Of a stretch of DNA of 64,000 nt, positions 1 through 59,931 are shown piece by piece. The notes under the pieces were generated by a model that saw nothing but the letters and a program-made list of their open reading frames with translations, was not told where the DNA came from and did not search any database. Where the stretch lies: positions 32,001 through 96,000 of the IMG/VR virus record IMGVR_UViG_3300001525_000092. One strand, 5' to 3'. Numbering within the stretch: position 1 is the stretch's first letter; the number at the start of each line of letters is the position of its first letter. Position numbers and translations under genes: made by a program. Source of the DNA: a virus (lineage: Duplodnaviria; Caudoviricetes).

Positions 1-87
1 TCGCTGGGCGCCGCTGGCGGCCGCGAAATAACTCAGGATATAAATTATATTAGGGTAAGATTTTGAAGGCCGCCAGCGTCAAATTTA
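1..87 (+). repeat. Dispersed ~100-bp GC-rich inverted-repeat element, copy A (5' end cut by window edge)
   Basis: CGCTGGCGGCC (12-22) and its reverse complement GGCCGCCAGCG (68-78) flank the AT palindrome ATATAA-A-TTATAT (38-50); near-identical to five other copies. Confidence 0.95.
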
Positions 88-120
88 AATGATTTTAACA
101 TTTAAGAAAATGTTACTAAA

Positions 121-148
121 AAAGTCCAATCTTAATAGACTGGACTTT
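121..148. terminator. Probable intrinsic terminator hairpin
   Basis: AAAGTCCA...TGGACTTT stem with A/T tracts, downstream of the minus-strand gene ending at 170. Confidence 0.6.
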
Positions 149-169
149 CATTTTTGATATTTAGATTCT

Positions 170-1444
170 TTACTTATTTTCTAGTAGCGCAAGCTCTTTA
201 GAAAGAGTAGATAAGATAGCTATCTTAGTAGGATCATTCTTGTATGCTTCTGCTAGTTGCTGTATCTTCTGTCTGCGCTCTTCTATCTTAGCATCCTTAG
301 TAGCTTGAAGTTGCTCATTGATGTTAGCATAAGACTCAGGATCTTCTTTCTTCATGTCTTCATTGATGCGGGCTTCATAGCTTGCTCTTAAATTCACATT
401 TGTCATTGCCTTCACTTGATCTAGTGCTTCATGCATGTACTCAAAGTCAGTACTAGCAGAACCGGATGCTGAGCGTACCCATGTCAAGTTCACATTGTCA
501 TTGCCTTCAATGATGTTAGCAATAGAACCATCTGCACACTCAAGAACTTTAGCACAGTCAACTTCACAGATATTGTCAAAGCCTTCTTGTACTCTTGCTA
601 CATTCATCACAATGTTCATGAAGTTAGTCTTAGTAGCACCAAACAATGTAGAAGAGAAGTTGTCAGCGTATTGCTTGAAGTCTATGGTGTTGTTGAATGA
701 CTCTGATATATTTTCACCTTTCTCTAACTTGATCTCATTCTCTGATATTGTGAACTTATAAGATGGCTCATTCCAGTTTGCTTGCCACTCATACACTAAT
801 GACTCATCTACTTTATGGAAGTTAGGAAGAAGTGAGTTGATAGTGTTGAAGTCTGCATCATCGCATGCTGCTTGGCTTACCTTTCCTTCTTTGATGCAGT
901 AGCTATATCCATTGATAGCAAACCATGTCTCATTCTCTTTCACAATAGAATATGACAAAGGTGAAGTAAGTGAGTAGTTCTGAGTTCTCACTTCATCTAC
1001 ATGCATAGTACCATATACCTCTTTACAGATGTTACGGAACTCTGGGATGTACTGGATAGACTTGAGTGCACCTGCTTTGATATATTGCACTACTTCTGAC
1101 TCATTCATAGAAAGCAGCTTCTCTGCCGTCTTGCAACCTTCTTTAGCAATGTAGTCATATTGAGAGTTAGAGTTCTCTATGATCTCACAAGCAGTAGCAA
1201 TCTTCCAACTGATGTTGTTCTCTGTCACATATTTCAGTACACTCTCTAATATAGTAGCAATTCCATTGTCGTACTTGTATTGTGTTGATTCTCTTATGAA
1301 GCTATTGACTAGGCCATAGCTTGCTGGATTTGTATAAAGATAGCCACGATAGTTCTTCAAGAACTCTTTGCCTGACTCAGTAATGGCCTCTGTCATGTTA
1401 AGCTTGTCAGCAAAACTAAGACCTTTAATCAAATTTAGATTCAT
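170..1444 (-). CDS. Hypothetical protein, probably a virion/head component
   Basis: 424-aa ORF with phage codon usage, several I/L-x-E motifs and a C-terminal coiled coil; preceded by TATTTTTAACT. Confidence 0.5.
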   Translation of the reverse strand: MNLNLIKGLSFADKLNMTEAITESGKEFLKNYRGYLYTNPASYGLVNSFIRESTQYKYDNGIATILESVLKYVTENNISWKIATACEIIENSNSQYDYIAKEGCKTAEKLLSMNESEVVQYIKAGALKSIQYIPEFRNICKEVYGTMHVDEVRTQNYSLTSPLSYSIVKENETWFAINGYSYCIKEGKVSQAACDDADFNTINSLLPNFHKVDESLVYEWQANWNEPSYKFTISENEIKLEKGENISESFNNTIDFKQYADNFSSTLFGATKTNFMNIVMNVARVQEGFDNICEVDCAKVLECADGSIANIIEGNDNVNLTWVRSASGSASTDFEYMHEALDQVKAMTNVNLRASYEARINEDMKKEDPESYANINEQLQATKDAKIEERRQKIQQLAEAYKNDPTKIAILSTLSKELALLENK

Positions 1445-1471
1445 TTAGTTTTTGGTATGATTTATTTAGAT

Positions 1472-1482
1472 AGTTAAAAATA
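1472..1482 (-). promoter_or_regulatory. Putative late-promoter motif TATTTTTAACT
   Basis: The same motif lies about 13-45 nt upstream of nine genes in the window. Confidence 0.55.
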
Positions 1483-1537
1483 ATGTCTTTATTATTCATA
1501 TAAATAAAACATACTAATTAAATGACATGAATATAAT

Positions 1538-2482
1538 ATGAAAGAAACGGTCATAATTGTGACAGTGTACAAGAATAGGTACAGTAAGTTGATAGATTGG
1601 CTAGCATCAGAGAAAAGCACCATTTCTGATACTTGCGACATAGTGCTTCTTGCTCAGAACAATGATGAATATAAAGAATATGAGAAGTATTGCAAGAAAG
1701 AAAACATGAGAGTAGTATGGTGTGATGCTACTAACATAGGAGAGAAAAGGAAGTACGGATATCATTGGGCTATAGACAATGGATATAAGAATCTGATATG
1801 GACAGATGATGACTTATATCCAACTGGCACTGCTATAGACTTCATCACTAAGAATCCTTCTGGTAAGTACAAAGGACATAGAATTCCTGTTGATGAAATA
1901 TATGATAGACTTATAAAAGTAGTAGAAGATCATCCTGATGCTGGGATGGTGACTTGCTTCAGAAGCGGATTCTTAGGCATGTCTACTACACGGATATACA
2001 AGAACAAAGCGTTGCATCCTAATGCATTGATCTTGATAAATCTAAATGTCATGAAACATAGTGATATAGAATACAATACATCTCCTGATTGGATGGAAGA
2101 TCAATGCTTCTATCTAGACATGCTAGTATCAGGATATCCTATATATTGTGAAGGAAGCATATGTCCTAACTATCCTATATATAGATGGAATCACAACAAT
2201 AAGTCATTAGTATATAGTGACAGTAATGGTGGCTTGTCTAAGAGGGACATGCAACAGATAAGACAGTATGTCAAGTATGGCGGAGACTTGTACATAGGAA
2301 GATCTGGCAATCTTACTACTAAGATAAACTATAGCAAGTATTATGGTGCTAAAGACCTTCCTATTCCTTATGGAAAGTCTTTTGATGAAGATCTGATGAG
2401 ACTATGCAAGTCAAGAGAAGATGAGACATTGTTGAAAGAAGTGATAGACTATCTAACTAACAAGAAAACAAAAAAAAGATGA
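1538..2482 (+). CDS. GT-A fold glycosyltransferase of the TAGT/GREB1-like DNA-base glycosyltransferase type
   Basis: NIGEKRKY...LIWTDDD (DxD) and WMEDQCFYLDML (ED) motifs; N-terminal IIVTVYKNR strand. Confidence 0.65.
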   Translation: MKETVIIVTVYKNRYSKLIDWLASEKSTISDTCDIVLLAQNNDEYKEYEKYCKKENMRVVWCDATNIGEKRKYGYHWAIDNGYKNLIWTDDDLYPTGTAIDFITKNPSGKYKGHRIPVDEIYDRLIKVVEDHPDAGMVTCFRSGFLGMSTTRIYKNKALHPNALILINLNVMKHSDIEYNTSPDWMEDQCFYLDMLVSGYPIYCEGSICPNYPIYRWNHNNKSLVYSDSNGGLSKRDMQQIRQYVKYGGDLYIGRSGNLTTKINYSKYYGAKDLPIPYGKSFDEDLMRLCKSREDETLLKEVIDYLTNKKTKKR

Positions 2483-2507
2483 TTCCTTAAGGAATCATCT
2501 TTTTTTT
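2470..2507. terminator. Bidirectional terminator, perfect 38-bp palindrome
   Basis: A8-GATGATTCCTTAAGGAATCATC-T8 between convergent genes. Confidence 0.85.
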
Positions 2508-2523
2508 TGTGTGTTGTATCATA

Positions 2524-2805
2524 TCACATCTTAAGACCTAGCTTAGTAGCACAAGCTGTCACTATCAATCTGCTTGTCATCAAGCTTCCTAATGGTCCTT
2601 TCAAGTCAATTCCAAGTGTGTTAGCTACTGCTTTCATTATAATTGGTCCAACAGTGAATCCTGCTAAGCCACCGAACAATCCACCGAGAATGCCTTCTGT
2701 CAAAGGAGTGCCATTCTCTCTAGCACCTTCAAGATGCTTTATAAGATCTCCATATGCTTTGTCTTCATTGATAGGTTGCTCTAGACAATCATTTATAGAC
2801 TTCAT
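2524..2805 (-). CDS. Putative internal head protein with glycine zipper
   Basis: MKSINDCLEQPINE N-terminus; LTE followed by GILGGLFGGLAG. Confidence 0.5.
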   Translation of the reverse strand: MKSINDCLEQPINEDKAYGDLIKHLEGARENGTPLTEGILGGLFGGLAGFTVGPIIMKAVANTLGIDLKGPLGSLMTSRLIVTACATKLGLKM

Positions 2806-2808
2806 TGT

Positions 2809-3282
2809 TTATATGCTCACTATATTGTTGTCTAAGAATGAAACTATAGCATGCACCCATTTCTTAGCATCTACTGGCTTGTTGTCTGATGTCTTGATGT
2901 CAAACTCATGACCTTCTTTCTTAGCTGTAGTACCTTTAGACTTTCTAGGTGTAGACTTAGGTCCATACTCTATAGAAAGTGTAGTAACATGGCTAGATTG
3001 ATTGAATGATAATGTCATGTTTAGAAGTCTCATATCATCCCAATTAGACATCACATACTGCTCAAAAGGTATCAAACCAAGCCCATTCACATCATCATAA
3101 GATGTCCTGTCATCTTTGAAGAAGTTCTTGTAATGATTGACAAGCATCTCTTCTGTCACTTTCTCATCATCTTTGAAAGGAACATTCTTAGGCATGCTCT
3201 TCAATGCATAAGTATACTGCTTCCATAAGTCATTAGATTCAAAGACTAATGACTCGTTCATATATTCTGTCAATGATTTCAT
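2809..3282 (-). CDS. Putative internal head protein
   Basis: MKSLTEYMNES capsid-targeting-like N-terminus. Confidence 0.5.
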   Translation of the reverse strand: MKSLTEYMNESLVFESNDLWKQYTYALKSMPKNVPFKDDEKVTEEMLVNHYKNFFKDDRTSYDDVNGLGLIPFEQYVMSNWDDMRLLNMTLSFNQSSHVTTLSIEYGPKSTPRKSKGTTAKKEGHEFDIKTSDNKPVDAKKWVHAIVSFLDNNIVSI

Positions 3283-3933: not shown

Positions 3934-5076
3934 TCATTGTTCTGTTTCATTCCTGCGCTTCTTAGAAAGCTCAGTTAAAAATAATTGAATGTCTTCTTTT
4001 GAGAAGAGCTCTACATAATTCAAGTTGTTCTTCTTAGCAGTTTCCCTTTTATTTACATCTGAGATTGTCCAAGTAGTTATAGCTGACTTATAAAATGGAT
4101 GTTCTTTACTTCTTTCTTTCCATTGTTCTAATATAGAAGAATCTTCTTTAGAAGTAGAAGAGTAAGGATGCTTGCCGTGTGTCCAAGAACCTTGCAATTC
4201 TATGAACATGTCTAGTTCCGGTATATAAAAGTCACAATGCGAAGGATAACGTTCTTCCTTATATTGTCTTATGACAGAAGGATATATATCACATATGTCT
4301 TTGTAAAGTTGTTCTTCTGGTTTAGATGTGCTGAAAGTATGATTATTTCTTTTAGTTCTTGAAATCTTCTCTAATGATTCTTTAGATGCTCCTCCATTAG
4401 TTACACCATATTTCTTAAGGCAAGTATCTACTAATTTATTCTTGAACTTATCACATTTCAATGGATTGTCTACACCATACCTTTCTATTAATGTATTCTT
4501 TATCTTCTCCTTGACTTCTTTTGCCTGATATGCGTTGTCTACACCATATTTTTGTTGCATTGATTTTTTGTATGCTTTCTTTGCTTGAGATGACTTAGCA
4601 GTATTGTCTACCCCATATCTTTCTAGTGTTGTTTGGATAATCCTTTTCTTTATGACATCTGACTTAGCAGGATTATCTACCCCATAATGATTCATCAAAG
4701 TATTCTTTATTTTTTCTTGTGCTTGCTTAGAGGCTCCTCCGTTTATGACTCCATATCTTTCCATGCAAGTAGAAGCTATCTTATTTTTAGTGATAGGAGA
4801 TTTCTGTGCACAAGAAATAGAACAATGATATTCAAATGGCTTGAATGATGCTCCTCTAAATTTCACATATTTACCACAAATAGGACACTTAGGATGTGCT
4901 TCTATATTACGACTAATTCTAAACAATGTCTCTTTAATAGAAAATGAATCATGATATCTATTTAAGAGATATTCTTCTATGTTAGGATATTTGTATATTT
5001 TTCTAATTCTATTAGAATTTATTCTTCTTTTCTTATCAAACAATATTCTTAATATCAATTGGTCATGGTTGTTCAT
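3934..5076 (-). CDS. Putative homing endonuclease (Zn finger, KYGVDN repeats, C-terminal Vsr/PD-(D/E)xK-like nuclease), paralog 1
   Basis: CPICG..CSISC; repeated (K/R)YGV(D/T)N; CDFYIPELDMFIELQGSWTHG; AT-rich codon usage. Confidence 0.75.
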   Translation of the reverse strand: MNNHDQLILRILFDKKRRINSNRIRKIYKYPNIEEYLLNRYHDSFSIKETLFRISRNIEAHPKCPICGKYVKFRGASFKPFEYHCSISCAQKSPITKNKIASTCMERYGVINGGASKQAQEKIKNTLMNHYGVDNPAKSDVIKKRIIQTTLERYGVDNTAKSSQAKKAYKKSMQQKYGVDNAYQAKEVKEKIKNTLIERYGVDNPLKCDKFKNKLVDTCLKKYGVTNGGASKESLEKISRTKRNNHTFSTSKPEEQLYKDICDIYPSVIRQYKEERYPSHCDFYIPELDMFIELQGSWTHGKHPYSSTSKEDSSILEQWKERSKEHPFYKSAITTWTISDVNKRETAKKNNLNYVELFSKEDIQLFLTELSKKRRNETEQ

Positions 5077-5082
5077 ATACAA

Positions 5083-10955: not shown

Positions 10956-12815
10956 TTATGTGTATGATATGTTTCCTGTTGTTATGTAGTTGCCTTCATT
11001 GTCTATCACATCATAAGAAGGAGACTCAAGTGAGTTAGACAATGCATCTACTTTGAATATGACATATATTCCATTTCTAGCTATCTCAGGAAAGTCATTC
11101 CCGTCTATTCTGATGTAGAACAAGTCAACTTTAGTCATGTACTTAGATAGATTGATGCCGACATTCTGTGTCACATTCCTTCTTATCTTTATGTTCTGAG
11201 CATCTTCTGTTCTGTAGAACAATGGCTTGTAAATAACTCTAGGTGCTGTTCTTTGGTGTGTGCTAGAGACAGAAGATCCTTTTTTCAGTATGTTGCATCT
11301 TATGTTGTCAATGAAAAATACTTTGTTAGTGTCATTCATGATTTCTATGTTCTTGTTGTATTGTTTGTAAGTGTAAGGATTGTCTTCATCTCTTTCTTGA
11401 AGAGAAGGCAATTCTCTCACTCTTCCTTCTTCTATGTCAGTGATGATGTGTCTTATATAGTCTTTAGTGAGAACACACACATTAGACTTCATAGTGATGC
11501 CTATGTATCTGTCAATGAATGCAAGTCTCAAATACACATTAGACGGAACTTGATTCCAGTCTGTGAACAAGTCTATCAATGGAATGCTAAAGTCATCTAT
11601 GGTATTGTCGTAAGATGAGCTAGTCCAAATAACATGCTTGAAGTCTACATCAGATGCTACTGTGACCTCATATCCGCACATCTCCGGATGTCCTTGAAGC
11701 AACTCACTGTCTAAGGCATCTTCGTCTATAGAAGTTGCCACTTTCTTGTAAGTGCTCAAGTCAACATTATATAGCTCTTCATAATACTGCTGTAATTGCA
11801 TAGAACTATTGTACTGGAACTTTCCTACAGCTGACACTTTTCCATCTATGAACTGGACATTAGCTTCTAGAAATATCTTGGAATCTGTGTTGAATGAGCA
11901 AGAAGAGCTTTCAATTTCTTCATTTCCTTGATAGAATTCATCAATGATCTTGCTCCAAGGAAACAATGTGACTATCATTTCTTTAGACATCTTAGCATAT
12001 GAGTCCATGTTGCTAGCATCGTATTTCATCATCTGGATTCCATCAACATCAAGAATGCTCCATTTCATCATCAGAGACTTGAATGACACTTGCTGGATAG
12101 CACCGTCAGGAACATCATACTTTGTGAATGTGTATGTGCCATCTTCATTCAATTGACACCTTCTCTTGCTAGATTCACACAATAAGCTAAACTCTTGATC
12201 AGTGATTGTTCTAGTGACTTTCTTCACTTCTATCTCATTCTTGTCTTCATCAATGAATCTTATTACACTCATAGCAATGTCATCTATCCATATAGGATAA
12301 GGAAAGTCTATCCAAGCAGAAGTAAACAATATGTCCATGTCAGGAACATCATACTCATCATACTCCGTATATGTGTCATGACATATCTTTCTAAGTGGCG
12401 CTATAGATGTGTCTTTGTCATTCTTCGACAATATCCAATGAAACTTTATGTTGTTGATTAGTGAATAGCAATGAACTATCATTGGTTGCTTCTTCTTGGT
12501 AGAAGGATGCCATATCTTCAATGACTTAGTCTTGCACTCTATCTCATTTCCACTTCCATTCAAAGGATTTCCAATGAACTTAGAAGAAGTACAGAAAGCA
12601 GCAATTCCACTTTCATTTCTCTTTGATATCCACACATCATTCACTGATAAGTCAAGAGAAGAAGGCACAAGCCACACATCGGTGACATGCATCATGTCAT
12701 TCACTAAGTCACCATACACTAATGCCTTTTCTTTCTTGTAAGTCTCATAACCGACATTGTCTGAGAATGTCACTAAGTAGTTGTGTGATCCAAGTCTGAC
12801 ATTGCTTTCTTTCAT
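10956..12815 (-). CDS. Hypothetical protein, likely structural
   Basis: 619-aa acidic ORF in the baseplate gene string. Confidence 0.5.
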   Translation of the reverse strand: MKESNVRLGSHNYLVTFSDNVGYETYKKEKALVYGDLVNDMMHVTDVWLVPSSLDLSVNDVWISKRNESGIAAFCTSSKFIGNPLNGSGNEIECKTKSLKIWHPSTKKKQPMIVHCYSLINNIKFHWILSKNDKDTSIAPLRKICHDTYTEYDEYDVPDMDILFTSAWIDFPYPIWIDDIAMSVIRFIDEDKNEIEVKKVTRTITDQEFSLLCESSKRRCQLNEDGTYTFTKYDVPDGAIQQVSFKSLMMKWSILDVDGIQMMKYDASNMDSYAKMSKEMIVTLFPWSKIIDEFYQGNEEIESSSCSFNTDSKIFLEANVQFIDGKVSAVGKFQYNSSMQLQQYYEELYNVDLSTYKKVATSIDEDALDSELLQGHPEMCGYEVTVASDVDFKHVIWTSSSYDNTIDDFSIPLIDLFTDWNQVPSNVYLRLAFIDRYIGITMKSNVCVLTKDYIRHIITDIEEGRVRELPSLQERDEDNPYTYKQYNKNIEIMNDTNKVFFIDNIRCNILKKGSSVSSTHQRTAPRVIYKPLFYRTEDAQNIKIRRNVTQNVGINLSKYMTKVDLFYIRIDGNDFPEIARNGIYVIFKVDALSNSLESPSYDVIDNEGNYITTGNISYT

Positions 12816-15657: not shown

Positions 15658-15969
15658 ATGACAAAGTTAGTGAAACTCATAACAGGAGGAAAGAAAGTAA
15701 GATGTGAGATAGGATACTTGGAACATCCTACTTATGAGATAAGCATAAAGTATAGCATATATAAGTATGAGAACAAGTTCTTATGGAAGAAGTGGTATAC
15801 TTATGACTACAAGATAACTGCTCCTTATGTGAACATCAAGTATAGTCTTCAGTCGGTGTCTGAGAGAAACACTAACATCATGATAGAACAAAAGGTAAAA
15901 GAGCTAAGGCATGAGATAGAAGATAGAATATTAGAAATGAAAGCAGAAGATGCACAAAATAAAGTTTGA
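15658..15969 (+). CDS. Hypothetical protein
   Basis: ORF with phage codon usage. Confidence 0.55.
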   Translation: MTKLVKLITGGKKVRCEIGYLEHPTYEISIKYSIYKYENKFLWKKWYTYDYKITAPYVNIKYSLQSVSERNTNIMIEQKVKELRHEIEDRILEMKAEDAQNKV

Positions 15970-22928: not shown

Positions 22929-22960
22929 AATGGACATTGCTTGTGAAAGTGATGTCCATT
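22929..22960 (+). terminator. Hairpin downstream of ompA
   Basis: AATGGACATTGCTT-GTGA-AAGTGATGTCCATT. Confidence 0.55.
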
Positions 22961-22972: not shown

Positions 22973-23073
22973 AAGATGACGCTGGCGGCCTTGAAAATGT
23001 TGCCCTAATATAATTTATATCTCGAGTTATTTCGCGGCCGCCAGCGGCGCCCAGCGACTCCTGGCGTCATCTT
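22973..23073 (-). repeat. Dispersed GC-rich element, copy B
   Basis: Reverse complement of copy A; ends AAGATGACGC / GCGTCATCTT are a perfect 10-bp inverted pair. Confidence 0.95.
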
Positions 23074-29367: not shown

Positions 29368-30557
29368 GAACAGACATTCAACTTTCTATAGATAGACTAA
29401 ACAATATATTTGAAGATGGAATAGAAAAGTATGTTGATCCTATCACTAACTTGACATATGACTATTATGTTCCTTCTACTAATCTTTACATTGACATGAG
29501 ATATGGGATAGAATGGCAAGGACATTCTTTTGATTCTTATAATCGTATTGATATAGAATTGGCGGAGTGGCTTAAAGAGAAGGGTACGGATAATGCACCA
29601 TATAAATGGGTGACAGAAGGATCTGCTAAAGACAATGTTGCTAAGATGTACAATAGAAGCTACATCATATTCTGGTCTATAGAAGAGTTGAATGCATTCT
29701 TTGACATGTCAATGAAGCTAGAATATAGCAATGATGACATGAGAATAGAGTATGAGAAGATACTTAAGCATGATGGAAAGCTCTCATTGTATAGTGGACA
29801 CAACAAGATAGTGAAGCAATTTCAGCAAGAGAACTTGTACCAACCAGAACAAGCATTGTTTGATGACTATGCTAAGAGATACAAGCTATGTAGGAATCGA
29901 GACAAGTATCTTGGTCTCAAGATATGGGACTTGAATGCTAATGACATGATAAATGGATTCAAGATAGCAGGAATGCATTATGGATTTAGCATGTTCAGTC
30001 CTATGATAGGTAAGTGGTTTGTATGGCATTTCAACTTGCAGGACAGTGTGTGTTATGATCCAACTGGAGGATGGGGTCATCGCTTGCTAGGAATAGCACC
30101 ATTTGTGAAGAAGTACATATACAATGACTTGAGTCCTCATACAGTAGAAAGTTGCAAGAGGATAGCACAATGGGCAAATCTAGACAATGTAGAGTATCAC
30201 AATGAGGATGCAACAACATTCATGCCAGATGCAGACTATGACTTCATGTTCACATGTCCTCCTTATTATGCTGATGACAAGAACACTGAAGAGTATGAGT
30301 GTGATGGATTCACTTCATTGGAACAATTCAATGACTTCTTGCTAGGAATGTATGATAAGTTCTTGAAGAAAGAATCTTGCAAGTACTTTGGATTAGTGAT
30401 ACGAGAGGACATGGTACCAGACATCATGAGAAAGGACATCAAAGAATCATACTGTGTAGCAAGAAACTCTAACTCACACTATGCTAGAACATCTAAGCTT
30501 CAAAGAAAGAAGTTCTTAGAATACTTATACATATTCAAGAAAGATGGAATTAAGTGA
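29364..30557 (+). CDS. DNA amino-methyltransferase (N6A/N4C type) with a degenerate N-terminal nuclease-like domain
   Basis: Motif I CYDPTGGWGHR, motif IV FTCPPYY; N-terminal YDYYVPSTNLYID aligns with the nuclease domain of the KYGVDN paralogs. Confidence 0.75.
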   Translation: MRTDIQLSIDRLNNIFEDGIEKYVDPITNLTYDYYVPSTNLYIDMRYGIEWQGHSFDSYNRIDIELAEWLKEKGTDNAPYKWVTEGSAKDNVAKMYNRSYIIFWSIEELNAFFDMSMKLEYSNDDMRIEYEKILKHDGKLSLYSGHNKIVKQFQQENLYQPEQALFDDYAKRYKLCRNRDKYLGLKIWDLNANDMINGFKIAGMHYGFSMFSPMIGKWFVWHFNLQDSVCYDPTGGWGHRLLGIAPFVKKYIYNDLSPHTVESCKRIAQWANLDNVEYHNEDATTFMPDADYDFMFTCPPYYADDKNTEEYECDGFTSLEQFNDFLLGMYDKFLKKESCKYFGLVIREDMVPDIMRKDIKESYCVARNSNSHYARTSKLQRKKFLEYLYIFKKDGIK

Positions 30558-31620
30558 TGAAGTGAACAATATATACCTTAAGTATGTTGATTCAAGAAAT
30601 AGAATAATTCCGAAGAAAGTCACACACATTACAGGAGAAGAAATAGAATGTCTTAGAAAATATTTAGTTAATTTGCCCATATCATATACTCCAGTGACAT
30701 TATTGCAACATATCAAAAATAAAGTATATGAAATAGGCAAATGCAAAAGATGTGGCAAACCTACAAAATGGCTAAAAAATCATTATCAAGAATATTGTTG
30801 CTTGCTATGCATGCAAAAATCAATATACGTGAAAGAAAATAGAATTAAGACAAATCTACACAAATACGGTGTCACCAACAATCTAAGAATAGATGATGTA
30901 GTCAAAAAAGCAACATTCAATTCTCACACAAAAGAAGCAATATACAAACAACAACAAACTAGATTAGAAAAATATGGCTACATAACTCCATTCCAAAATG
31001 AAGAAAGTATGTCATTAGCAATTAAAAGATCTCATACATCTAAAGCAGAAAAGAAAAGAAAAAATACTTTTTATAAGAAATATGGAGAAAATAGAAAAGA
31101 AATAGTAGAAAAATACAAAAATACTATGCTGGCTAAATATGGTGTAGAAAATGCTGGACAATTAAAGAAAACAATAGATTCTCATACAAAAGAATCAATT
31201 CTAAAAGGAATAGAAACTAAAAGAAAAAATCATACATTCAACACTTCTAAGCCAGAAGAAGAACTATACTTATACATAAAGTCTAAGTTTCCTAATGTGA
31301 AGAGACAGTACAAAGACAAAGAACGATATCCATATTACTGCGACTTCTACATTCCTGAGCTAGACTACTTTATAGAACTACAAGGTTACTACACTCATGG
31401 GAAAGAACCTTATAATCCTGCTTCTATCAAGCATCAAGCCTTAGTGCAAAGATACAGAGAAAGGTATGGTTCAGATTGCCAAGCAATCACTATATGGACA
31501 ATCAAAGATGTAGAGAAGAGAAACTGTGCTAAAGAGCATAATCTGAACTTCAGAGAAGTATGGTGCTTAGAAGAAGGAAAGAAATTTGTTGATGAATTAT
31601 TTGAAAAATCAATTAGCTAA
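30544..31620 (+). CDS. Putative homing endonuclease, paralog 2
   Basis: CKRCG..CCLLC, KYGV(T/E)N repeats, CDFYIPELDYFIELQG. Confidence 0.75.
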   Translation: MELSDEVNNIYLKYVDSRNRIIPKKVTHITGEEIECLRKYLVNLPISYTPVTLLQHIKNKVYEIGKCKRCGKPTKWLKNHYQEYCCLLCMQKSIYVKENRIKTNLHKYGVTNNLRIDDVVKKATFNSHTKEAIYKQQQTRLEKYGYITPFQNEESMSLAIKRSHTSKAEKKRKNTFYKKYGENRKEIVEKYKNTMLAKYGVENAGQLKKTIDSHTKESILKGIETKRKNHTFNTSKPEEELYLYIKSKFPNVKRQYKDKERYPYYCDFYIPELDYFIELQGYYTHGKEPYNPASIKHQALVQRYRERYGSDCQAITIWTIKDVEKRNCAKEHNLNFREVWCLEEGKKFVDELFEKSIS

Positions 31621-31707: not shown

Positions 31708-32820
31708 ATGAGTAACGTAAACATGAATCAGAACGAAAACATTGAAAATGACATCCTAGGCTTCGATCCTACTCAACTCTCATGTTATCAAGAGCAGCCA
31801 CAGCAGACTTCTGGAGGTAATCCTAATATCTATCATCCGAAGCCAGCGCTTTCTAAGAGCGAAGACGGAGTTTACCGCGCACAAATCAAGGTGATTTACA
31901 ATCCTTTCGACTTGAAGAACTCTATCCTTGAGCAACAGAGCTATGCTCTTCAGGATAGCAACGGTTTCTTCTCAGTAGTTAGCTCATTGACTAACAATGA
32001 CAAGAATTGCCCAGTATTCAAGGCATGGAAGCAGTGCCACTTCTCTAAAGATGAGAAGATGCAGAAGCAAGCACTTCGCAAAGATCAAGGTGGACGTGGA
32101 TTGTTTGACAAGCGTTATGCTCGTTATGCTTTGATTCAAGTAATCGAAGACAATAATCAGCCTAATCTCCAGGGTTCTTATATGTTCTGGAAGCTTCCGA
32201 AAGCTATCTGGGAATCTATCAATGGAAAGATGGCACCAAGTCCAGAATCAAAGAAGGCTAGCATTCCAGTCATGGATTTCTTGTTTGGTCGTGCTATTGA
32301 CTTGGAGGTGACACCTGGTCCTGATGATCCAAAAGCACCTGAGCGCAAGACACGTGAGATTAGCTATAACACATCTGAGTTGACCGATGATGTAGTTAGT
32401 TGCACTAATCCAGATGGCAGTCCACTTCTCGATGATGAGCAGCAAGCTATCCTTGATCAGTATGTTGAAGAGATGACAAAGAAAGTATGGAAGCAGAAAG
32501 ATCCGGCATTGCGTGCTACAGCCATTGCAGAAATCAATGCAGAAGAGAACACAAAGAAACTTCGTGCTCTGTATCGTGATGTGATCGAGAAGATCAAGAG
32601 CTTTGCTCCGGACTTGATAAAGGAGCTCGGGTATCATGAGTGGTCCGATGATGTCAAAGCTCGTGTCAATGCATGGATCAATGTTGTTCTTGCTGGCAAT
32701 GACCCAACAAATCCATTGCCATCATCAACTCCAGCTCCTGCATCAACTCCAGGTGACAACACTGCAACACCTGTGCAAGATGCAACTGCTCCTGACACAT
32801 CAGATGACCTTCCATTCTAA
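31708..32820 (+). CDS. Single-stranded DNA-binding protein (T4 gp32-like)
   Basis: CPVF..W, KRYARYALIQVIED, FWKLPKAI, acidic DDLPF tail. Confidence 0.8.
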   Translation: MSNVNMNQNENIENDILGFDPTQLSCYQEQPQQTSGGNPNIYHPKPALSKSEDGVYRAQIKVIYNPFDLKNSILEQQSYALQDSNGFFSVVSSLTNNDKNCPVFKAWKQCHFSKDEKMQKQALRKDQGGRGLFDKRYARYALIQVIEDNNQPNLQGSYMFWKLPKAIWESINGKMAPSPESKKASIPVMDFLFGRAIDLEVTPGPDDPKAPERKTREISYNTSELTDDVVSCTNPDGSPLLDDEQQAILDQYVEEMTKKVWKQKDPALRATAIAEINAEENTKKLRALYRDVIEKIKSFAPDLIKELGYHEWSDDVKARVNAWINVVLAGNDPTNPLPSSTPAPASTPGDNTATPVQDATAPDTSDDLPF

Positions 32821-33993: not shown

Positions 33994-34014
33994 CTTATAA
34001 ATATTTTGATAATC

Positions 34015-34539
34015 ATGAAGAAAGTAACTAAAATTTCATTGACATGTGCAATAGTTGCATTTACCATCACATTCGTCGGAATGAACATCATCATTCGTTC
34101 TTGCAATGATAGCAACAAAGACAAGATTGAAGTAGTAGGTGACACTGTCTCATCTGAAGGAAAGGTGATGGAGTTTGAGTACCAGAATCACAAGTTCATC
34201 AATATAGTGAAGATGAATGATGACAAAGAAGAAAGCTTTGTAGTTCATGATCCTAACTGCAAGTGTATGACTAAGAAGCTCAACAATATCACTACTGTCA
34301 TCACTAACACTGACAATCATAACACTTATAAGTCTGATTCTATATCTAAAGCTAACTTTAGAGTGATCATAAGTAAGTTGAGTCAATTGTCAAGTGACAA
34401 TGCAATGATAGCAAAAGAAGTCAAGACACTTAGAACTGAAGTTGCTATGCTCAAGAAGATGAAGACAAATCCAGTCTGGAAGGTGCCAGTCAAAGCAACA
34501 AGTAAACCTACTAAGAAAGCACCTTCTAAGAAGAAGTAG
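34015..34539 (+). CDS. Membrane-anchored protein, possibly lysis accessory
   Basis: N-terminal TM, coiled coil and basic tail; next to the lysozyme. Confidence 0.45.
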   Translation: MKKVTKISLTCAIVAFTITFVGMNIIIRSCNDSNKDKIEVVGDTVSSEGKVMEFEYQNHKFINIVKMNDDKEESFVVHDPNCKCMTKKLNNITTVITNTDNHNTYKSDSISKANFRVIISKLSQLSSDNAMIAKEVKTLRTEVAMLKKMKTNPVWKVPVKATSKPTKKAPSKKK

Positions 34540-34543: not shown

Positions 34544-34645
34544 AATGCCGCCAGGAGTCGCCGGGCGGCGCCCGGCGGCCGCGAAATAGCTCGAGATATA
34601 AATTATATTAGGGCAACATTTTCAAGGCCGCCAGCGGCAAATTTA
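34544..34645 (+). repeat. Dispersed GC-rich element, copy C
   Basis: Same architecture; starts about 5 nt after a stop codon. Confidence 0.95.
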
Positions 34646-34756
34646 GACTTGTCTCTTGAACAGAGCCAAGCGATGTTCATTAACACTTGTTTATAAATTA
34701 GATTTTGAAATTTCTAAGCTTTGTTCTATATTCTTTATGCAAAACATAAAGATTAT

Positions 34757-42952: not shown

Positions 42953-43380
42953 TGATTTATCTTAGTACTGTGATTGGCCTCAGTCTTCTTCTGATGATTC
43001 CACTTTACTTCAATATTAGATCACTTAAGAAGACTAAGAAAGAAGTAGAAGACAGAAATGTTGCACTTCATATCATATACAGCATACCTTATCGACAGAA
43101 AGATGGGAAAGAGATGCTTATCTTCATGAAAGCAGATGGAAACAAGAAGAACGGAACAACAATAGGCATCAGATGCCGCTCAGATTGTTTCTGTGTTCAA
43201 GAAGAGTATGATGAGAGAGACATGAAGTTCTATGCTCAGCTTATCAAAGAAGGCTACTATAGAGTAGATGACAATTACAAGAATTGCAAAGATTGGTATC
43301 AATATTCAATTAATGGGAACATATATGATGGAACATGGAAAGAATGCATCAAGTCTAGGAAACGGAATTCCTCTAAATAA
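42940..43380 (+). CDS. Membrane-anchored hypothetical protein
   Basis: N-terminal TM. Confidence 0.5.
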   Translation: MEELMIYLSTVIGLSLLLMIPLYFNIRSLKKTKKEVEDRNVALHIIYSIPYRQKDGKEMLIFMKADGNKKNGTTIGIRCRSDCFCVQEEYDERDMKFYAQLIKEGYYRVDDNYKNCKDWYQYSINGNIYDGTWKECIKSRKRNSSK

Positions 43381-43726
43381 GTTCAATCTTGAGATAGTGT
43401 TGAAGGCTATCTTATGGTATGGGTCTGGTTGTCATGGACGCATAACATCCATATCATTCAATGTAGTCAAGAGCATATTTGAGATTGACAATGCAAGAGA
43501 TCTCCAGAAGCTATACAACATGCTAGACTTGAACTCAGAAGAGCTTGGTGTGTACAGTGTGTGCTTTGCTGACAATAATATAGAGATGGAGAACATGTCA
43601 GAAGCACCAGTTGCATTGCTGAATACATCGCGGTCACTTGCCATGCGTGCTATCGTGTACTCCCAAAAAGATGATCTTGATGACATATCAATAAGTGTGT
43701 CTGACTTCATGAATGACTTGCTTTGA
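43268..43726 (+). CDS. Hypothetical protein (start uncertain)
   Basis: Phage-like codon usage from about 43354; overlaps the upstream ORF. Confidence 0.4.
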   Translation: MTITRIAKIGINIQLMGTYMMEHGKNASSLGNGIPLNKFNLEIVLKAILWYGSGCHGRITSISFNVVKSIFEIDNARDLQKLYNMLDLNSEELGVYSVCFADNNIEMENMSEAPVALLNTSRSLAMRAIVYSQKDDLDDISISVSDFMNDLL

Positions 43727-43729: not shown

Positions 43730-43826
43730 AATGCCGCTGGCGGCCTTGAAATTCTCACCCTAATATAATTTATATCTCAAGCTATTTCGCGGCCGCCAGC
43801 GTCACGCAGCGACCCCTAGCGGCATT
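43730..43826 (-). repeat. Dispersed GC-rich element, copy D
   Basis: Reverse orientation; ends AATGCCGCT / AGCGGCATT are complementary. Confidence 0.95.
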
Positions 43827-44317: not shown

Positions 44318-44692
44318 ATGAAGAAGATCATCATCACATTAGCGCTCACTTTAGTATCAACACTTGCATTTTCTACTACATACAAGACTATCAACTACAA
44401 TACTGACAATGTTCCAGTCCATGAGTATGAGTCTGTTGAGAATGTTGACTACTGGGTATCTGTCTTGAAGTTCATCTCTGATGCACAGAAGACATCACAA
44501 GACAAAGTAGTCATCAAGTATGATGGAAAGTGGAAGTATGTCATTCCAAATGCAGAGTCACTCATCCAACTTGACATCATCATCTCTCACTTGACTTCCG
44601 GCTCATCTATCAAAGATGGATCATTCTCAGCTAACATGAAGAAAGCTTTTGACATTGCAAAGAAAGATGGATTGATTGTGACAATCAAGTAA
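44318..44692 (+). CDS. Secreted hypothetical protein
   Basis: Signal peptide MKKIIITLALTLVSTLAFS. Confidence 0.6.
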   Translation: MKKIIITLALTLVSTLAFSTTYKTINYNTDNVPVHEYESVENVDYWVSVLKFISDAQKTSQDKVVIKYDGKWKYVIPNAESLIQLDIIISHLTSGSSIKDGSFSANMKKAFDIAKKDGLIVTIK

Positions 44693-44713: not shown

Positions 44714-44755
44714 ATCGCAAATTTAACATCTATATACAATTGTTAAATTTGCGAT
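44714..44755. terminator. Inverted repeat between convergent genes
   Basis: ATCGCAAATTTAACA-N12-TGTTAAATTTGCGAT. Confidence 0.65.
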
Positions 44756-44845
44756 TTGGGCGTTTATTTTTCTCGTACCTTATAAATTATATACTTAAGG
44801 TATTTCGCGGCCGCCAACGGCGCCCAGCGACTCCTGGCGTCATCT
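44745..44845 (-). repeat. Dispersed GC-rich element, copy E (variant with a diverged distal arm)
   Basis: GATGACGCCAGGAGTCGCTGGGCGCCGTTGGCGGCCGCGAAATA retained; overlaps the stop codon of the 44840-45187 gene. Confidence 0.9.
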
Positions 44846-55660: not shown

Positions 55661-55693
55661 TTTTTAACTAAATTCAATTTCAACGAATGTCAG

Positions 55694-56644: not shown

Positions 56645-56657
56645 ATAGAGCAAAGAC

Positions 56658-56999
56658 ATGAAAAGAATTTTTTCGCTTGCATTGATGATGTCAACTATAT
56701 TCATCATGATTAGTTGCATCACACCTGATGTTCCTGTAGTTGTCACAACAGGCACTCATGTTGAATATAGATCTATACCTCCTGTCATATATAGTCACCC
56801 ATTGCCACCTCCTCACTTTGATAGATATCGCTATGTTTGTCCACTTCCAAAGAGAGACTTGTACAAGCCTGTATGGCTGCAGAGACCAAGTGTGAAGCCA
56901 AGACTCAAATCTGAATTTGGCAACATGAACAGAAAGCAAGTAGACAGACCTAAGAATGTGCCTAATCCAAGAAACAAAAATTTTGGAAGAAATCGATGA
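56658..56999 (+). CDS. Pro/Arg-rich lipoprotein
   Basis: MKRIFSLALMMSTIFIMISC. Confidence 0.55.
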   Translation: MKRIFSLALMMSTIFIMISCITPDVPVVVTTGTHVEYRSIPPVIYSHPLPPPHFDRYRYVCPLPKRDLYKPVWLQRPSVKPRLKSEFGNMNRKQVDRPKNVPNPRNKNFGRNR

Positions 57000-57088
57000 A
57001 CTTTTACTACAGAAATTTCTATTATTAAACTTGAATACTTAAGTATTCAATCATATTAAATAACAATTTAAATTTAAAGTAACGAAAA

Positions 57089-57250
57089 ATGAAAAAGTTA
57101 GTTTTGATGTTTGCTATGATTGTGGCAGTGTCTTTTGCTTCATGTGGCAATTCAACAAACTCTTCTGCATCTGCAAGTGATTCAGATACAGTAGTAGTTG
57201 ACAGTGCAACTGACTCAGTTACAGTTGATAGTGCTACAGTAGCCAAGTAA
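57089..57250 (+). CDS. Small Bacteroidota-type lipoprotein with D-S/T-x repeats (not in ORF track)
   Basis: MKKLVLMFAMIVAVSFASCGNSTNSSASASDSDTVVVDSATDSVTVDSATVAK; followed by a terminator. Confidence 0.75.
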   Translation: MKKLVLMFAMIVAVSFASCGNSTNSSASASDSDTVVVDSATDSVTVDSATVAK

Positions 57251-57275
57251 TTGACTTGGATGAAACAAATCGTAG

Positions 57276-57308
57276 ATGCAGAATTCAGCAATGGATTCTG
57301 CATTTTTT
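57276..57308 (+). terminator. Intrinsic terminator
   Basis: ATGCAGAATTCA-GCAA-TGGATTCTGCAT plus T-run. Confidence 0.75.
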
Positions 57309-57374
57309 GTTTTGAAATAATCTAAAATATTTCTATATTTATAAAGTAATACATAAATTAATAGAAAGTAGATT

Positions 57375-58439
57375 ATGTCGAATATAAAATCAAAACTTAC
57401 ACTTGTTGTTGATGGAAACTGGTTGATGATGTCTCGTCTTAGCATTCTTAGAATGAGAATCAAAGATGAAGACACTCTTATCAAAGAGCTTAAGTTGATG
57501 ATGATAAAGTCTATCAATAAGCTTATTCGTGACATTCCACAGATTGACAATGTGATATTTGTTGCAGATGGTGGTTCTTGGAGAAACAAAGTAGAGATTC
57601 CAAGTTTCTTAAAGAAAGATCATATCACATACAAAGGAACAAGAGAGAAAGACAAAGAACTTGATTGGGACAAGATATTTGTTGGATATGATGACTTCAT
57701 CAATGTACTTAGAGATACTGGTGTCTCTGTATATAGAGAAAGTGGAATAGAAGGCGATGATTGGTGTAATTATTGGTCTAAGTTGCTGAACTCAAAGAAC
57801 ATCAATTGCTTGATATGGTCTGCTGACCGAGACTTGACACAACTAGTGAAGATAGATCCTAAGACTAAAGTGTTCACTGCAACTTGGAACAAGAACTATA
57901 TGACAATTGAAAGCATTGATCATAGTTCAGACAATGACATGGACTTCTTCTTCAATAGCTATGACTCTAATGAGAATCAGAAGTTGTTAGAGACACTTTG
58001 CATGAAAGCTAAGCGTGTTGATGAGATACATCCTATGGATGTTGTAATTGATAAGCTGATTCGTGGTGACATTGGAGACAACGTGATTCCTGTAGTGTAC
58101 AAGAAAGGAAAGTCGTCAAACAAGTTGTTTAGAGTATCTCAGAAAGAGCTTGACTTTAATCTTGACATTACTCGTCTTGATGATGTCAATGCTTACTTTG
58201 AAGAACTTCTTGATAAGAAAGCATGGAAAGGAAAAGCTACAGCCAATGCAGATGAATGTGTAGAGCACTTCTTCTATAATGAGAGACTTGTATGGCTTGA
58301 CGCTAGTCAGTATCCTGATGAGATATTAGAGAAGATGACAAAGTATCAGTTGAAGCCATGTTACAAAGACTTGTCATTAGCTGAGCAAAAGATACAAGCA
58401 GAGAAGAATGAAGTATTTGATGTTCTTGAAGAAATTTAA
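57375..58439 (+). CDS. rnh: T4-type RNase H / 5'-3' exonuclease
   Basis: VVDGN, YKGTR, EGDD, SADRDLTQL, GDIGDNV. Confidence 0.85.
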   Translation: MSNIKSKLTLVVDGNWLMMSRLSILRMRIKDEDTLIKELKLMMIKSINKLIRDIPQIDNVIFVADGGSWRNKVEIPSFLKKDHITYKGTREKDKELDWDKIFVGYDDFINVLRDTGVSVYRESGIEGDDWCNYWSKLLNSKNINCLIWSADRDLTQLVKIDPKTKVFTATWNKNYMTIESIDHSSDNDMDFFFNSYDSNENQKLLETLCMKAKRVDEIHPMDVVIDKLIRGDIGDNVIPVVYKKGKSSNKLFRVSQKELDFNLDITRLDDVNAYFEELLDKKAWKGKATANADECVEHFFYNERLVWLDASQYPDEILEKMTKYQLKPCYKDLSLAEQKIQAEKNEVFDVLEEI

Positions 58440-58522
58440 TGAAATATTTTGAAATAAATGAGATTGGTTCTATATTTAATACGTTAATTAAATGTAGAAC
58501 CAATTTAAGTATTATAAAGATT

Positions 58523-58882
58523 ATGGTAGATCGTTTGAATCAAGAGTTAGAATTAGATGACTTAGTACTTATCTGTCATCCTAAGACATCAGTCCTCCTT
58601 CGTTGCATTGTGAAGAAGATCAATGCAAAGACAGTCACAGTACATGCTCTTCCAGAGTCAGAAAAAGAGAATGAGACTTCTCAATATTGCCAACATGACA
58701 TGGTTGGTATTGGTGATCATAAATTTCATGGAAACTACTTCAGAATTAGTAAAGGTTTCAATAGACGTCCAGAAGAAGTAGTGAAGATTGGACATTATCG
58801 GACTATCCAAGACAACGGAAAAGACATCCATTACTCTAATGTTGAGATTGGTGATGAAGAACTTTGGCCAACCGACTTGTAA
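58523..58882 (+). CDS. SH3/KOW-like hypothetical protein
   Basis: MVDRLNQELELDDLV; the promoter at 58448-58476 argues for this internal start. Confidence 0.55.
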   Translation: MVDRLNQELELDDLVLICHPKTSVLLRCIVKKINAKTVTVHALPESEKENETSQYCQHDMVGIGDHKFHGNYFRISKGFNRRPEEVVKIGHYRTIQDNGKDIHYSNVEIGDEELWPTDL

Positions 58883-58896
58883 AAATCAATTTAATC

Positions 58897-59142
58897 ATGC
58901 TAAAAAGAAATAAGATTCCTATGAAGAAAGACATCAGTGGTTTTGATGTGAAGAAAGGTTATGTTGTGTTGTTAGCTACTACTGATAGCAACAACCTTCT
59001 TCATGCTAAAATAATAAAAGAGACAACCGCTTCTCTTATGTGTGAGATATTTGATGCTCCAGATGGCTATAGATGGCTTAATGGTAAAGTAGTTCGTCGC
59101 AAGCCGGAGCAAGTGATAGTGATAAGCCCATTTGACAACTAA
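58897..59142 (+). CDS. SH3/KOW-like hypothetical protein
   Basis: DISGFDVKKGYVV...RRKPEQVI. Confidence 0.5.
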   Translation: MLKRNKIPMKKDISGFDVKKGYVVLLATTDSNNLLHAKIIKETTASLMCEIFDAPDGYRWLNGKVVRRKPEQVIVISPFDN

Positions 59143-59160
59143 TTAAAATCACAATAGACT

Positions 59161-59826
59161 ATGAAGATTATATATGATGAGATGTATCCTGAAGAGTTCT
59201 TCAGATATGGAGGTGTAGTTCTTGTTGGTAGCTGGAACTTCAAAGTAGAGACTTATGGTCATTGGAAACAGACTACTGCGGCTCATGCATGGAACTATGA
59301 CTACATCAACAAGTATGGAGGCGATGCTTGGATTGGTGACATGCACTTCTCTTATGACAAAGAGAACAATGTCTTCAAGTACAAAGGATCTTTTCCTAAA
59401 GTAGAGACAAATGATCCGTATGGTGTTCCTAATGTTTGCTTCAGTCTAGTTGATGATCAAGATGCAAGATGGGAGAAATATGCTAAGCAACGCAAAGAAC
59501 GTGGATTTGATGATTCAGAATTGTGGAATCTTGATTGCTCAATTGCTAAGTTCATCCTTCCTCGTCTTGAGAGATACCAAGAAATCAAGTGCGCACACCC
59601 TGCTAACTTGACAGAAGAAGAGTGGACAAGACGAGTTGCATTGATGATATCAGCATTCAAGACTTACTTGTATGACATTGACTTGACTAATGATGAGAAA
59701 GTCATCAAGAAATTCTGTAAGCAAGGCATCATCAAGAAGAATGTAGATGATGCATTGAAACTCCATAAAGAATATCTTGAAGGAATGGAGTACTTTCATA
59801 AGTATTGGACTTGGTTAGGTGACTAA
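59161..59826 (+). CDS. Conserved phage hypothetical protein
   Basis: RGFDDSELWNLD..IAKFILPRL domain. Confidence 0.6.
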   Translation: MKIIYDEMYPEEFFRYGGVVLVGSWNFKVETYGHWKQTTAAHAWNYDYINKYGGDAWIGDMHFSYDKENNVFKYKGSFPKVETNDPYGVPNVCFSLVDDQDARWEKYAKQRKERGFDDSELWNLDCSIAKFILPRLERYQEIKCAHPANLTEEEWTRRVALMISAFKTYLYDIDLTNDEKVIKKFCKQGIIKKNVDDALKLHKEYLEGMEYFHKYWTWLGD

Positions 59827-59829
59827 CCC

Positions 59830-59931
59830 AGATGCCGCCAGAAGTCGCTGGGCGCCGCTGGCGGCCGCGAAATGACTCAGACTATAAATTATATATCTGG
59901 ACAAATTTTAAGGCCGCCAGCGTCAAATTTA
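59830..59931 (+). repeat. Dispersed GC-rich element, copy F
   Basis: Same architecture; starts about 4 nt after a stop codon. Confidence 0.95.

Follow-up and report, generated by a model that had tools for sequence, protein, structure and literature searches.

A folded repeat family kept at the 3' ends of transcription units in a group of ~290-kb human-gut phages

Introduction

Among the repeated elements described from T4-type phages, PeSLs are defined by a short stem-loop that is joined to an early promoter together with a Shine-Dalgarno site and start codon (Arbiol et al., 2010, PMC2839356; Comeau et al., 2014, PMC4122927). The PeSL and PmSL cassettes of these phages lie near indels and exchanges, and a role in recombination between DNAs that are otherwise unrelated has been proposed for them (PMC2839356; PMC4122927).

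In bacterial chromosomes, the REP/BIME sequences of enterobacteria are GC-rich imperfect palindromes of about 35 bp, present in hundreds of copies in transcribed extragenic DNA close to stop codons. They are modular mosaics with a presumed role in 3'-end stabilization or termination, act as substrates for rearrangement and are linked to RAYT (Y1) transposases. The MITE-like repeats of the Correia (CREE) and ERIC type are imperfect palindromes of 100-150 bp with an AT-rich centre, co-transcribed with neighbouring genes and able to end or process transcripts; Correia elements have, in addition, defined terminal repeats, a TA target duplication and clear presence/absence polymorphism. Intrinsic (Rho-independent) terminators are GC-clamped hairpins at gene ends, often followed by a U-tract and enriched at convergent junctions.

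The element described here resembles PeSL and PmSL in being a conserved intergenic stem-loop (terminator) motif, repeated many times in a T4-like genome, with a lineage-specific sequence. Unlike PeSL, it comprises several helices over ~100 nt and directly adjoins the stop codon upstream, and its positions are conserved across genomes that are ~72% identical. It shares with REP/BIME the GC-rich imperfect palindrome, the modular mosaic build, the location close to stop codons in extragenic DNA that is presumably transcribed, the presumed 3'-end function and the use as a rearrangement substrate, but it is about three times longer and occurs in 13-20 copies in a phage genome in which no Y1 gene was found. 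The likeness to Correia and ERIC lies in the palindrome with an AT-rich centre and in a probable co-transcription with neighbouring genes, which would be accompanied by the ability to end or process transcripts; the target duplication and the polymorphism of Correia were not seen. Like intrinsic terminators, it is a GC-clamped hairpin at gene ends, with which simple terminators are interchangeable at orthologous sites, but it carries a further, conserved hairpin on the 5' side together with an invariant segment, a conserved loop and a very long hairpin, its U-tract is poor in many local copies, and a family-wide sequence identity is maintained.

Results and discussion

Copies of the element

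The window (the whole stretch of DNA analysed, 64,000 nt of a 148-kb contig) holds six copies of a GC-rich element of ~100 bp, located and oriented as they had been in the original prediction. The copies and two associated features are as follows.

Copy A: 1-87, plus strand; 82 nt from where the minus-strand gene 170-1444 ends, at a convergent junction; truncated by the window edge, the full copy (contig 31985-32087) beginning 15 nt before base 1.
Copy B: 22973-23073, minus strand; flanking genes on the plus strand, so that the copy is reversed relative to both.
Copy C: 34544-34645, plus strand; begins 4 nt past the stop of the co-oriented gene 34006-34539.
39-bp hairpin module, one unit: 34646-34692, plus strand; directly 3' of copy C.
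Host-type promoter TTGAAA-N16-TATATT: 34705-34732, plus strand; 60 nt downstream of copy C.
Copy D: 43730-43826, minus strand; 3' end 3 nt past the stop of the plus-strand gene 43268-43726; synteny breakpoint.
Copy E (variant): 44717-44845, minus strand; convergent junction and synteny breakpoint.
Copy F: 59830-59931, plus strand; begins 3 nt past the stop of gene 59161-59826.

Copy B lies at the edge of lineage-specific genes; on one side it has an ordinary terminator hairpin (22929-22960), on the other the next gene. Copy C and the promoter that follows it form a putative terminator-plus-promoter composite; the 39-bp module trails some other copies as well, and in the relatives it occurs in tandem arrays, with 1 to 6 units each. 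Since the 3' end of copy D adjoins the stop of a plus-strand gene, its orientation is inverted compared with the ancestral one at gene 43268-43726. Copy E has the usual 5' half and AT core, with the 3' arm swapped for a second AT-rich hairpin (44717-44752), and a DUF7487 homing-endonuclease gene is inserted immediately downstream of copy F.

The whole 148-kb contig contains 12 copies, and eight more are found on three sister contigs (G001-G003), giving a local total of 20 in ~287 kb. The four contigs tile one ~290-kb T4-like gut phage genome, of which G001-G003 are the non-overlapping remainder and in which the T4-type genes gp32, gp46/47-like and baseplate wedge were found. The dispersed copies are 66-95% identical in pairs (mean 82%), and the 15-nt left-arm motif occurs seven times, against 0.03 expected from shuffled sequences. 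The 11-bp inverted repeat and the AT core had been correctly recognized, as had a NotI site in every copy of the window; the 148-kb contig has 11 exact NotI sites, all of them inside copies of the element.

Homologues in related genomes

The nearest relatives of this phage are five genomes of 244-294 kb and ten human-gut metagenome contigs, at ~72% nucleotide identity. BLAST and nhmmer searches across lineages gave no match to the GC-rich element in these relatives, and when the GC-rich variant was sought in IMG/VR and in metagenome and genome collections, only the sister contigs were returned. A recent MITE invasion was first suspected because BLAST gave no match in any of the five relatives. 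It was rejected on the evidence of orthologous-site alignments, which revealed a diverged homologue at the same gene junctions (13-16 copies per relative genome), and of a covariance model that bridges the two families: built from the relatives alone, the model gives full-length matches to 18-19 of the 20 local copies, with E-values down to 2.5e-6 (26.2 bits for copy B). In the main stem, 8 of the 11 pairs are altered on both sides between the lineages and still pair.

At 13-14 of the 20 local sites, a homologous element is present at the same junction in G004, a ~72%-identical genome. The orthologue of copy A is the G004 element at 32131, and the junction of copy C holds a diverged homologue in G004 and G007. 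A cross-family pattern scan of the collections added one genome of the same clade. In Rfam, no match was obtained at the gathering score over the window, nor at E<=1 over four copy-bearing loci. The six repeats are one lineage's version of a folded element common to a group of ~290-kb human-gut phages. The element family is undescribed and absent from Rfam; in each genome, 13-20 transcription units retain it at the 3' end.

A non-autonomous mobile element of the MITE or REP type had been among the proposals of the original prediction. These data bear on the idea of such an element, transposing or mobilized in trans and recently expanded in this lineage. The similarity of the dispersed copies and their arms, which look like terminal inverted repeats, would suit such an element, as would the six local copies without a G004 counterpart and the three G004 copies without a local one, the similar flank of copies C and D, and the fact that three of the six DUF7487 endonuclease genes adjoin copies. 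However, besides the many junctions shared with G004, the site of copy A is occupied in gut metagenome contigs, which are independent assemblies, and about 580 kb of these genomes yielded neither a Y1/HUH transposase nor a tyrosine recombinase nor an rve integrase (PF01797, used for RAYT transposases of the Y1/HUH, IS200/IS605-like type, had no match in G000-G004, while control genomes were matched). Three lineage-specific sites could be aligned, and none of them shows a target-site duplication, although diverged flanks could hide a very short one. Finally, five genomes 88-99% identical in the flanks showed no filled-versus-empty polymorphism: every alignable site holds the element or a decayed remnant of it. 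Mobility is therefore quite improbable, and what survives of the REP comparison is a fair functional analogy, that of GC-clamped extragenic palindromes past stop codons with copies at recombination breakpoints.

Anatomy and fold

From 5' to 3', the element is composed of a short conserved hairpin (P2) and a long hairpin of about 67 nt. The outer stem of the latter measures 10-11 bp; it is followed by a small internal loop and a short A/U stem, and then by an apical stem that varies and an AT-rich loop that is conserved. The folding free energy is -42 to -46 kcal/mol, with z-scores of -3.6 to -4.8. The sequence itself is conserved in segment 2 (GCGCCTGGG), in the P2 hairpin and in the AT loop, whereas the stem sequences differ among sites inside one genome with pairing retained. 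The covariation that had been read into the outer ends was not borne out, as the outer 5' and 3' positions pair in 6 of the 12 scorable copies, which is the chance level.

RNAalifold found almost no consensus structure in a MAFFT alignment, because helix registers and subtypes vary between sites. In an alignment based on sequence only, G.U pairs in the stems outnumber A.C pairs by 191 to 85. This is a hint as to the strand, in favour of an RNA, but base composition may account for part of the excess, because shuffled sequences give the same strand asymmetry in folding energy; for the same reason, the comparison of sense and antisense folding energies is uninformative as to RNA or DNA. A small ORF starting at the conserved ATG was also considered and rejected, given that an indel breaks the frame in copy C and that the ORF length varies between subtypes.

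The third arm, which had been predicted to allow mutually exclusive pairings, does so strongly in this lineage, where the alternative 1:3 duplex has an energy of -13.8 kcal/mol as compared with -8.6 when the arm is shuffled. In the relatives' family the pairing is weak (-6.3 versus -4.5 kcal/mol), and a conserved two-state switch was rejected on this basis.

Position relative to genes, terminators and promoters

In 15-16 of the 20 local copies, the 5' edge is located just past the stop codon of a co-oriented ORF, and the same is true for 48 of 71 copies in the relatives, 16 being reversed. Orientation is thus not independent of transcription, as originally thought. About two thirds of the copies begin 0-7 nt past the stop of the co-oriented gene, and in 30 of the 50 stop-adjacent copies the stop ends 13-20 nt ahead of segment 2. 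Convergent junctions, which make up 9% of all junctions, host 7 of the 20 local copies and 22 of the 71 copies of the relatives, i.e. about a third, a location not expected of PeSL. A further difference from PeSL is that a co-oriented promoter (TTGAAA-N16/17-TATATT) is present within 150 nt downstream in 18 of 92 copies only (about a fifth), although where it occurs this host-type promoter is a point of likeness.

A U-tract (at least five T in the 8 nt past the stem) follows 45 of 73 copies in the relatives (62%) and 5 of 13 local copies (38%). At contig sites 16120 and 145318, G004 carries plain A-run/hairpin/T-run terminators in place of the element, and at the site of the G004 copy at 44376 the element has decayed to a simple terminator hairpin in G005 and G007. 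We propose, with moderate confidence, that the element is a terminator or 3'-end hairpin cassette, homogenized and shuffled by recombination in the manner of PeSL or REP/BIME. Several observations count against the terminator part of this proposal: most local copies lack a good U-tract and have CAAATTT after the stem; copies B and D run against the flanking genes, with their T-runs pointing the wrong way; ordinary terminators adjoin some copies; and the sequence conservation of segment 2, P2 and the AT loop exceeds the needs of a plain terminator.

Two promoter readings were discarded. A T4-type late promoter in the AT core is disfavoured because copies at convergent junctions would drive no gene; moreover, TATAAATA is not enriched, with five occurrences for an expectation of 4.8, and it is not matched by the core. 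A Bacteroidetes-type -7 motif in the 3' flank is inconsistent among copies, the promoters of the genome being of the TTGAAA/TATATT type.

The position data also bear on a purely DNA-level role, namely a binding site for a phage protein with the palindromic arms as half-sites, acting as a regulator/operator site, in genome organization or packaging, or as an origin with an AT unwinding core and GC clamps; origin, packaging and segregation sites had all been put forward in the original prediction. The imperfectly palindromic form, the AT core conserved in sequence, the invariant segment 2, the occurrence of copies in both orientations and the iteron-like tandem arrays of the 39-bp module beside copies in some relatives could be explained in this way, and the replacement of the sequence of the whole family between lineages fits co-evolution with a binding protein. 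Yet a DNA site accounts poorly for the orientation bias toward the upstream gene, the placement 0-7 nt past stop codons, the enrichment at convergent junctions, the simple terminator hairpins that take the place of copies in relatives and the stem variation within one genome with pairing preserved. In addition, GC-skew has no inflection at the copies, and we know of no T4-like phage with twenty origins or packaging sites. A DNA-level site is, in our opinion, unlikely. Most likely, the element is neither a jumping element nor a replication origin.

A dedicated cis-regulatory or processed RNA should be considered as well, in which a trans-acting phage factor reads P2 and the AT loop, or which acts as a translation-coupled switch or as an RNase III site. 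P2/segment 2 and the apical loop are conserved in sequence beyond what pairing needs; the terminating ribosome would cover segment 1, because the stop codon is so close; the alternative 1:3 pairing is present in this lineage; and the coaxial stem, about 22 bp long and interrupted by internal loops, is similar to RNase III substrates. On the other hand, the alternative pairing is not kept in the relatives, copies decay to or give way to simple terminators without visible consequence, reversed copies occur, and neither an Rfam match nor a candidate factor was found. We regard such an RNA as a rather doubtful candidate.

Recombination and rearrangement

Copies of the element are located at 5 of about 14 synteny breakpoints, as opposed to 13 of 172 collinear junctions, in what is a single metagenome assembly; this association with indels, replacements and rearrangements is reminiscent of PeSL. 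The edges of lineage-specific genes carry copy B and the copies at 12220 in G001 and 15738 in G002. The copy at 116890 is a chimera of two apical subtypes, and the copy at 78077 in G004 has its 5' module swapped compared with its orthologues.

A 3'-end hairpin cassette would be transcribed as the tail of the mRNA of the upstream gene, and its long hairpin would mark the end of the transcription unit, acting as an intrinsic terminator in copies with a U-tract and, elsewhere or additionally, blocking 3' exonucleases. Copies probably exchange sequence among themselves, because many near-identical copies reside in a genome replicating by T4-type recombination. Such exchange could homogenize the family within a lineage (concerted evolution), give rise to chimeras, duplicate the cassette into other terminator positions and, now and then, lead to genome rearrangement at the copies.

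Conclusions

It is conceivable, but we would not expect it, that segment 2, P2 and the AT-rich apical loop, which are kept while the stems are rewritten, are the recognition site for a putative phage-encoded factor, and the element a dedicated, factor-dependent 3'-end formation system. Such a system would serve in termination, antitermination or processing and be coupled to the ribosome, which stops 0-7 nt upstream. If this is true, the element represents a new class of phage cis-regulatory RNA, whose switch of sequence across the whole family would be the result of co-evolution with the factor or a nuclease, or of escape from either.

The element provides a natural worked example of the behaviour of regulatory hairpin cassettes in phages with large genomes. 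The cassettes remain for long at the same gene junctions, while the family is rewritten in concert in each lineage with its fold retained; copies exchange with, or decay into, ordinary terminators, and serve as portable homology for rearrangement. The absence of a BLAST match in relatives can wrongly imply a recent invasion by a mobile element. For annotation, the element is of value as a probable mark of transcription-unit ends in a phage clade that is common in human-gut metagenomes.

Copies of the element and the phage that carries them

The six copies of the folded, GC-rich repeat in the window lie where the original prediction had placed them, copy A being truncated by the window edge and copy E having its 3' arm replaced:

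1–87 (+), copy A
22973–23073 (–), copy B
34544–34645 (+), copy C
43730–43826 (–), copy D
44717–44845 (–), copy E, including the replacement hairpin at 44717–44752
59830–59931 (+), copy F

The left-arm motif occurs seven times in the window, against 0.03 occurrences expected. The window covers bases 32001–96000 of a 148,148-bp virus contig (36.5% G+C). The whole contig holds 12 copies, two with another 5' module and one without any, and all 11 of its exact NotI sites fall within copies. Rfam returned no match for the element, either at the gathering score or at E ≤ 1.

The genes present, which include those for a gp32-like single-strand-binding protein, SbcC/SbcD-like gp46/47, baseplate wedge proteins, NrdD and several DUF7487 homing endonucleases, identify the phage as T4-like. 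When IMG/VR was scanned with an exact pattern, the element turned up solely in three contigs of one sample (G001 to G003), adding 8 copies; the metagenome and genome collections scanned yielded no other example of the GC-rich variant. These sister contigs have almost no DNA in common with the 148-kb contig and, when the four were mapped on a complete 294-kb relative, they tiled it without overlap; they are therefore most likely a single genome of about 287 kb with 20 copies (hereafter, local copies).

Three DUF7487 paralogues (PHROG 'homing endonuclease') lie in the window:

3934–5082 (–), DUF7487 gene
30544–31620 (+), DUF7487 gene
59872–61047 (+), DUF7487 gene

Over about 400 bp, their DNA is 70–75% identical to that of additional copies in the sister contigs and the related genome G004, and three of six DUF7487 copies directly adjoin the element. 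The annotated start at 59872 is inside copy F, and the true start is probably further downstream.

A diverged homologue in related phages

A search with the SbcC-like protein yielded five related genomes (G004 to G008, 244–294 kb), with 31% G+C and about 72% identity in alignable DNA. BLAST with the element gave no match in these five, and the first impression of a lineage-specific invasion was overturned by the alignment of orthologous junctions, where G004 and G007 hold, in the same places, an element of equal length and build and of different sequence. Motif search and nhmmer located 13–16 copies in each relative. In a MAFFT alignment the two families match column for column, with the short 5' hairpin P2, the invariant segment 2, a GCG-GAAA stretch, the AT core and an ATTTT stretch in common, and a different main stem.

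A covariance model built solely from the relatives' 71 copies recovers 18–19 of the 20 local copies over their full length and with matching orientation (E down to 2.5e-6); nhmmer recovered none of the 20 across families. In the structure-aware alignment, both sides of 8 of the 11 main-stem pairs differ between families and the pairs are still Watson–Crick; as this alignment was fitted to the model, these double changes are supporting evidence and not proof. In the sequence-only alignment 70.5% of cells pair under the proposed structure, vs. 55% at most in slid controls, with the majority of double changes in the apical helix. The covariation originally proposed for the outer ends does not hold, as 6 of 12 scorable copies pair there, which is the chance level. 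The alternative pairing of the third arm is strong in the local lineage and absent in the relatives; it is therefore not a conserved switch.

Genome-wide G+C is 36.5–37.8% in the four local contigs vs. 30.6–31.2% in the relatives, so that the GC-rich arms accompany a general compositional shift of the lineage.

Copies at synteny breakpoints

Flank mapping found copies at synteny breakpoints:

Contig 136630: upstream flank from the G004 element at 198 kb, downstream flank from that at 253 kb
Copy E and the copy at G001 26404: one flank each of the G004 element at 125 kb
Copies A and D: one flank each of the G004 element at 32 kb

The element is at 5 of about 14 breakpoints (homing-endonuclease insertions, large gaps and the circular wrap being set aside) vs. 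13 of 172 collinear junctions. The rearranged order is based on one assembly; two of the joins require inversion through the 11-bp palindrome, which repeat-collapse mis-assembly would not yield. The copy at contig 116890 combines the left half of one apical subtype with the right half of the other, and the 5' module at G004 78077 is unlike that of its orthologues.

A reciprocal pair of breaks (contig 77850/78098, window 45850/46098, and G001 37252/37406; G004 about 124.0 and 208.2 kb) has the element at neither junction, its exchange being mediated by something else, or by assembly.

Three copies, all at convergent junctions, share a deviating 3' module, with an AT-rich hairpin of about 15 bp, made of CAAATTTAACA and its complement, in place of the right arm:

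Window 44717–44752
L025 (a further sequence), about 12300–12345
L028 (likewise), about 15815–15860

Position relative to genes

The 5' edge lies 0–30 nt past the stop of a co-oriented ORF in 15–16 of the 20 local copies, and 7 of the 20 lie between convergent genes. Among the relatives' 71 copies, 48 are co-oriented behind a gene end and 16 reversed; 22 are at convergent junctions, which make up 9% of all junctions. Of 50 co-oriented copies, 30 have a stop codon that ends 13–20 nt ahead of segment 2; the element therefore abuts a stop codon rather than supplying one at a fixed position. Behind the main stem there is a T-rich tract in 45 of the relatives' 73 copies and in 5 of 13 local copies.

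Roughly one copy in five has a co-oriented TTGAAA-N16/17-TATATT promoter downstream; the motif is frequent genome-wide and mostly unlinked to the element. This sharply conserved, host-type promoter (e.g. window 25613, 28063, 31601, 32953, 34705 (+)) occurs 23 times exactly in the 148-kb contig and 82–98 times near-exactly per relative genome (n = 5). It probably represents the phage's early promoters and is suggestive of a host that has classical sigma-70 –35/–10 promoters, not of the Bacteroidetes type.

TATAAATA, not enriched overall, occurs at five window sites that may be T4-type late promoters; an ORF begins 3–36 nt downstream of four of them and 95 nt downstream of the fifth:

1499 (+)
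33996 (+)
39765 (+)
57336 (–)
62885 (–)

A 39-bp hairpin unit (window 34646–34692; L066:7685–7927; G004 bases 1–150) stands behind 14 of 92 copies. At one orthologous site it forms tandem arrays of 1 (G004, G008), 3 (G005, G006) and 6.3 units (G007), and one array is situated at the extreme end of the G004 record, where it may be relevant to the record's 'direct terminal repeat' label.

Stability and turnover of sites

Among the relatives (flanks 88–99% identical), the orthologous site holds the element in nearly every alignable case. In ten human-gut metagenome contigs, found via a neighbouring protein, the site behind the orthologue of gene 170-1444 has a full copy in eight; the ninth contig is cut off inside the copy and the tenth ends short of the site. 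When the two lineages are compared, 13–14 of the 20 local copies are matched by an element at the same gene junction and six are not; three of the 16 copies in G004 are unmatched in the local lineage. Three sites record replacement or decay:

Contig 16120: ordinary A-run/hairpin/T-run terminator in G004, element in the local lineage
Contig 145318: likewise
G004 44376 site in G005: AT loop lost, GC-rich segments mutated
G004 44376 site in G007: as in G005, with the 5' module lost too

In both G005 and G007 the remnant is a plain bidirectional terminator hairpin formed by the apical stem. In position, then, the element and intrinsic terminators can replace each other.

Nature of the element

The original suggestion of a mobile element finds no support: a search of about 580 kb of these genomes revealed no gene for a Y1/HUH transposase, a tyrosine recombinase or an rve integrase, and none of the three lineage-specific sites that could be aligned shows a visible target duplication. 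A role at the RNA level, on the sense strand, is indicated by the biased orientation, the closeness to stop codons and the equivalence with terminators. The stems contain 191 G·U cells vs. 85 A·C cells, although the cells depend on one another and base composition may account for part of the excess, since shuffled sequences show the same folding-energy asymmetry.

Among described systems, the PeSL/PmSL cassettes of T4-type phages come closest; they are short stem-loops joined to promoters and have a proposed role in recombination (PMC4122927). Their defining feature, the fusion of stem-loop and promoter, is not a property of the element. REP/BIME sequences resemble the element in where they lie and in the role they probably have, but they are associated with RAYT transposases, of which none occurs here.

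A simple terminator does not account for the conserved sequence in segment 2, P2 and the loop, a conservation that keeps factor-binding readings alive. We conclude that the element is a structured, positionally conserved and concertedly evolving terminator-like cassette.
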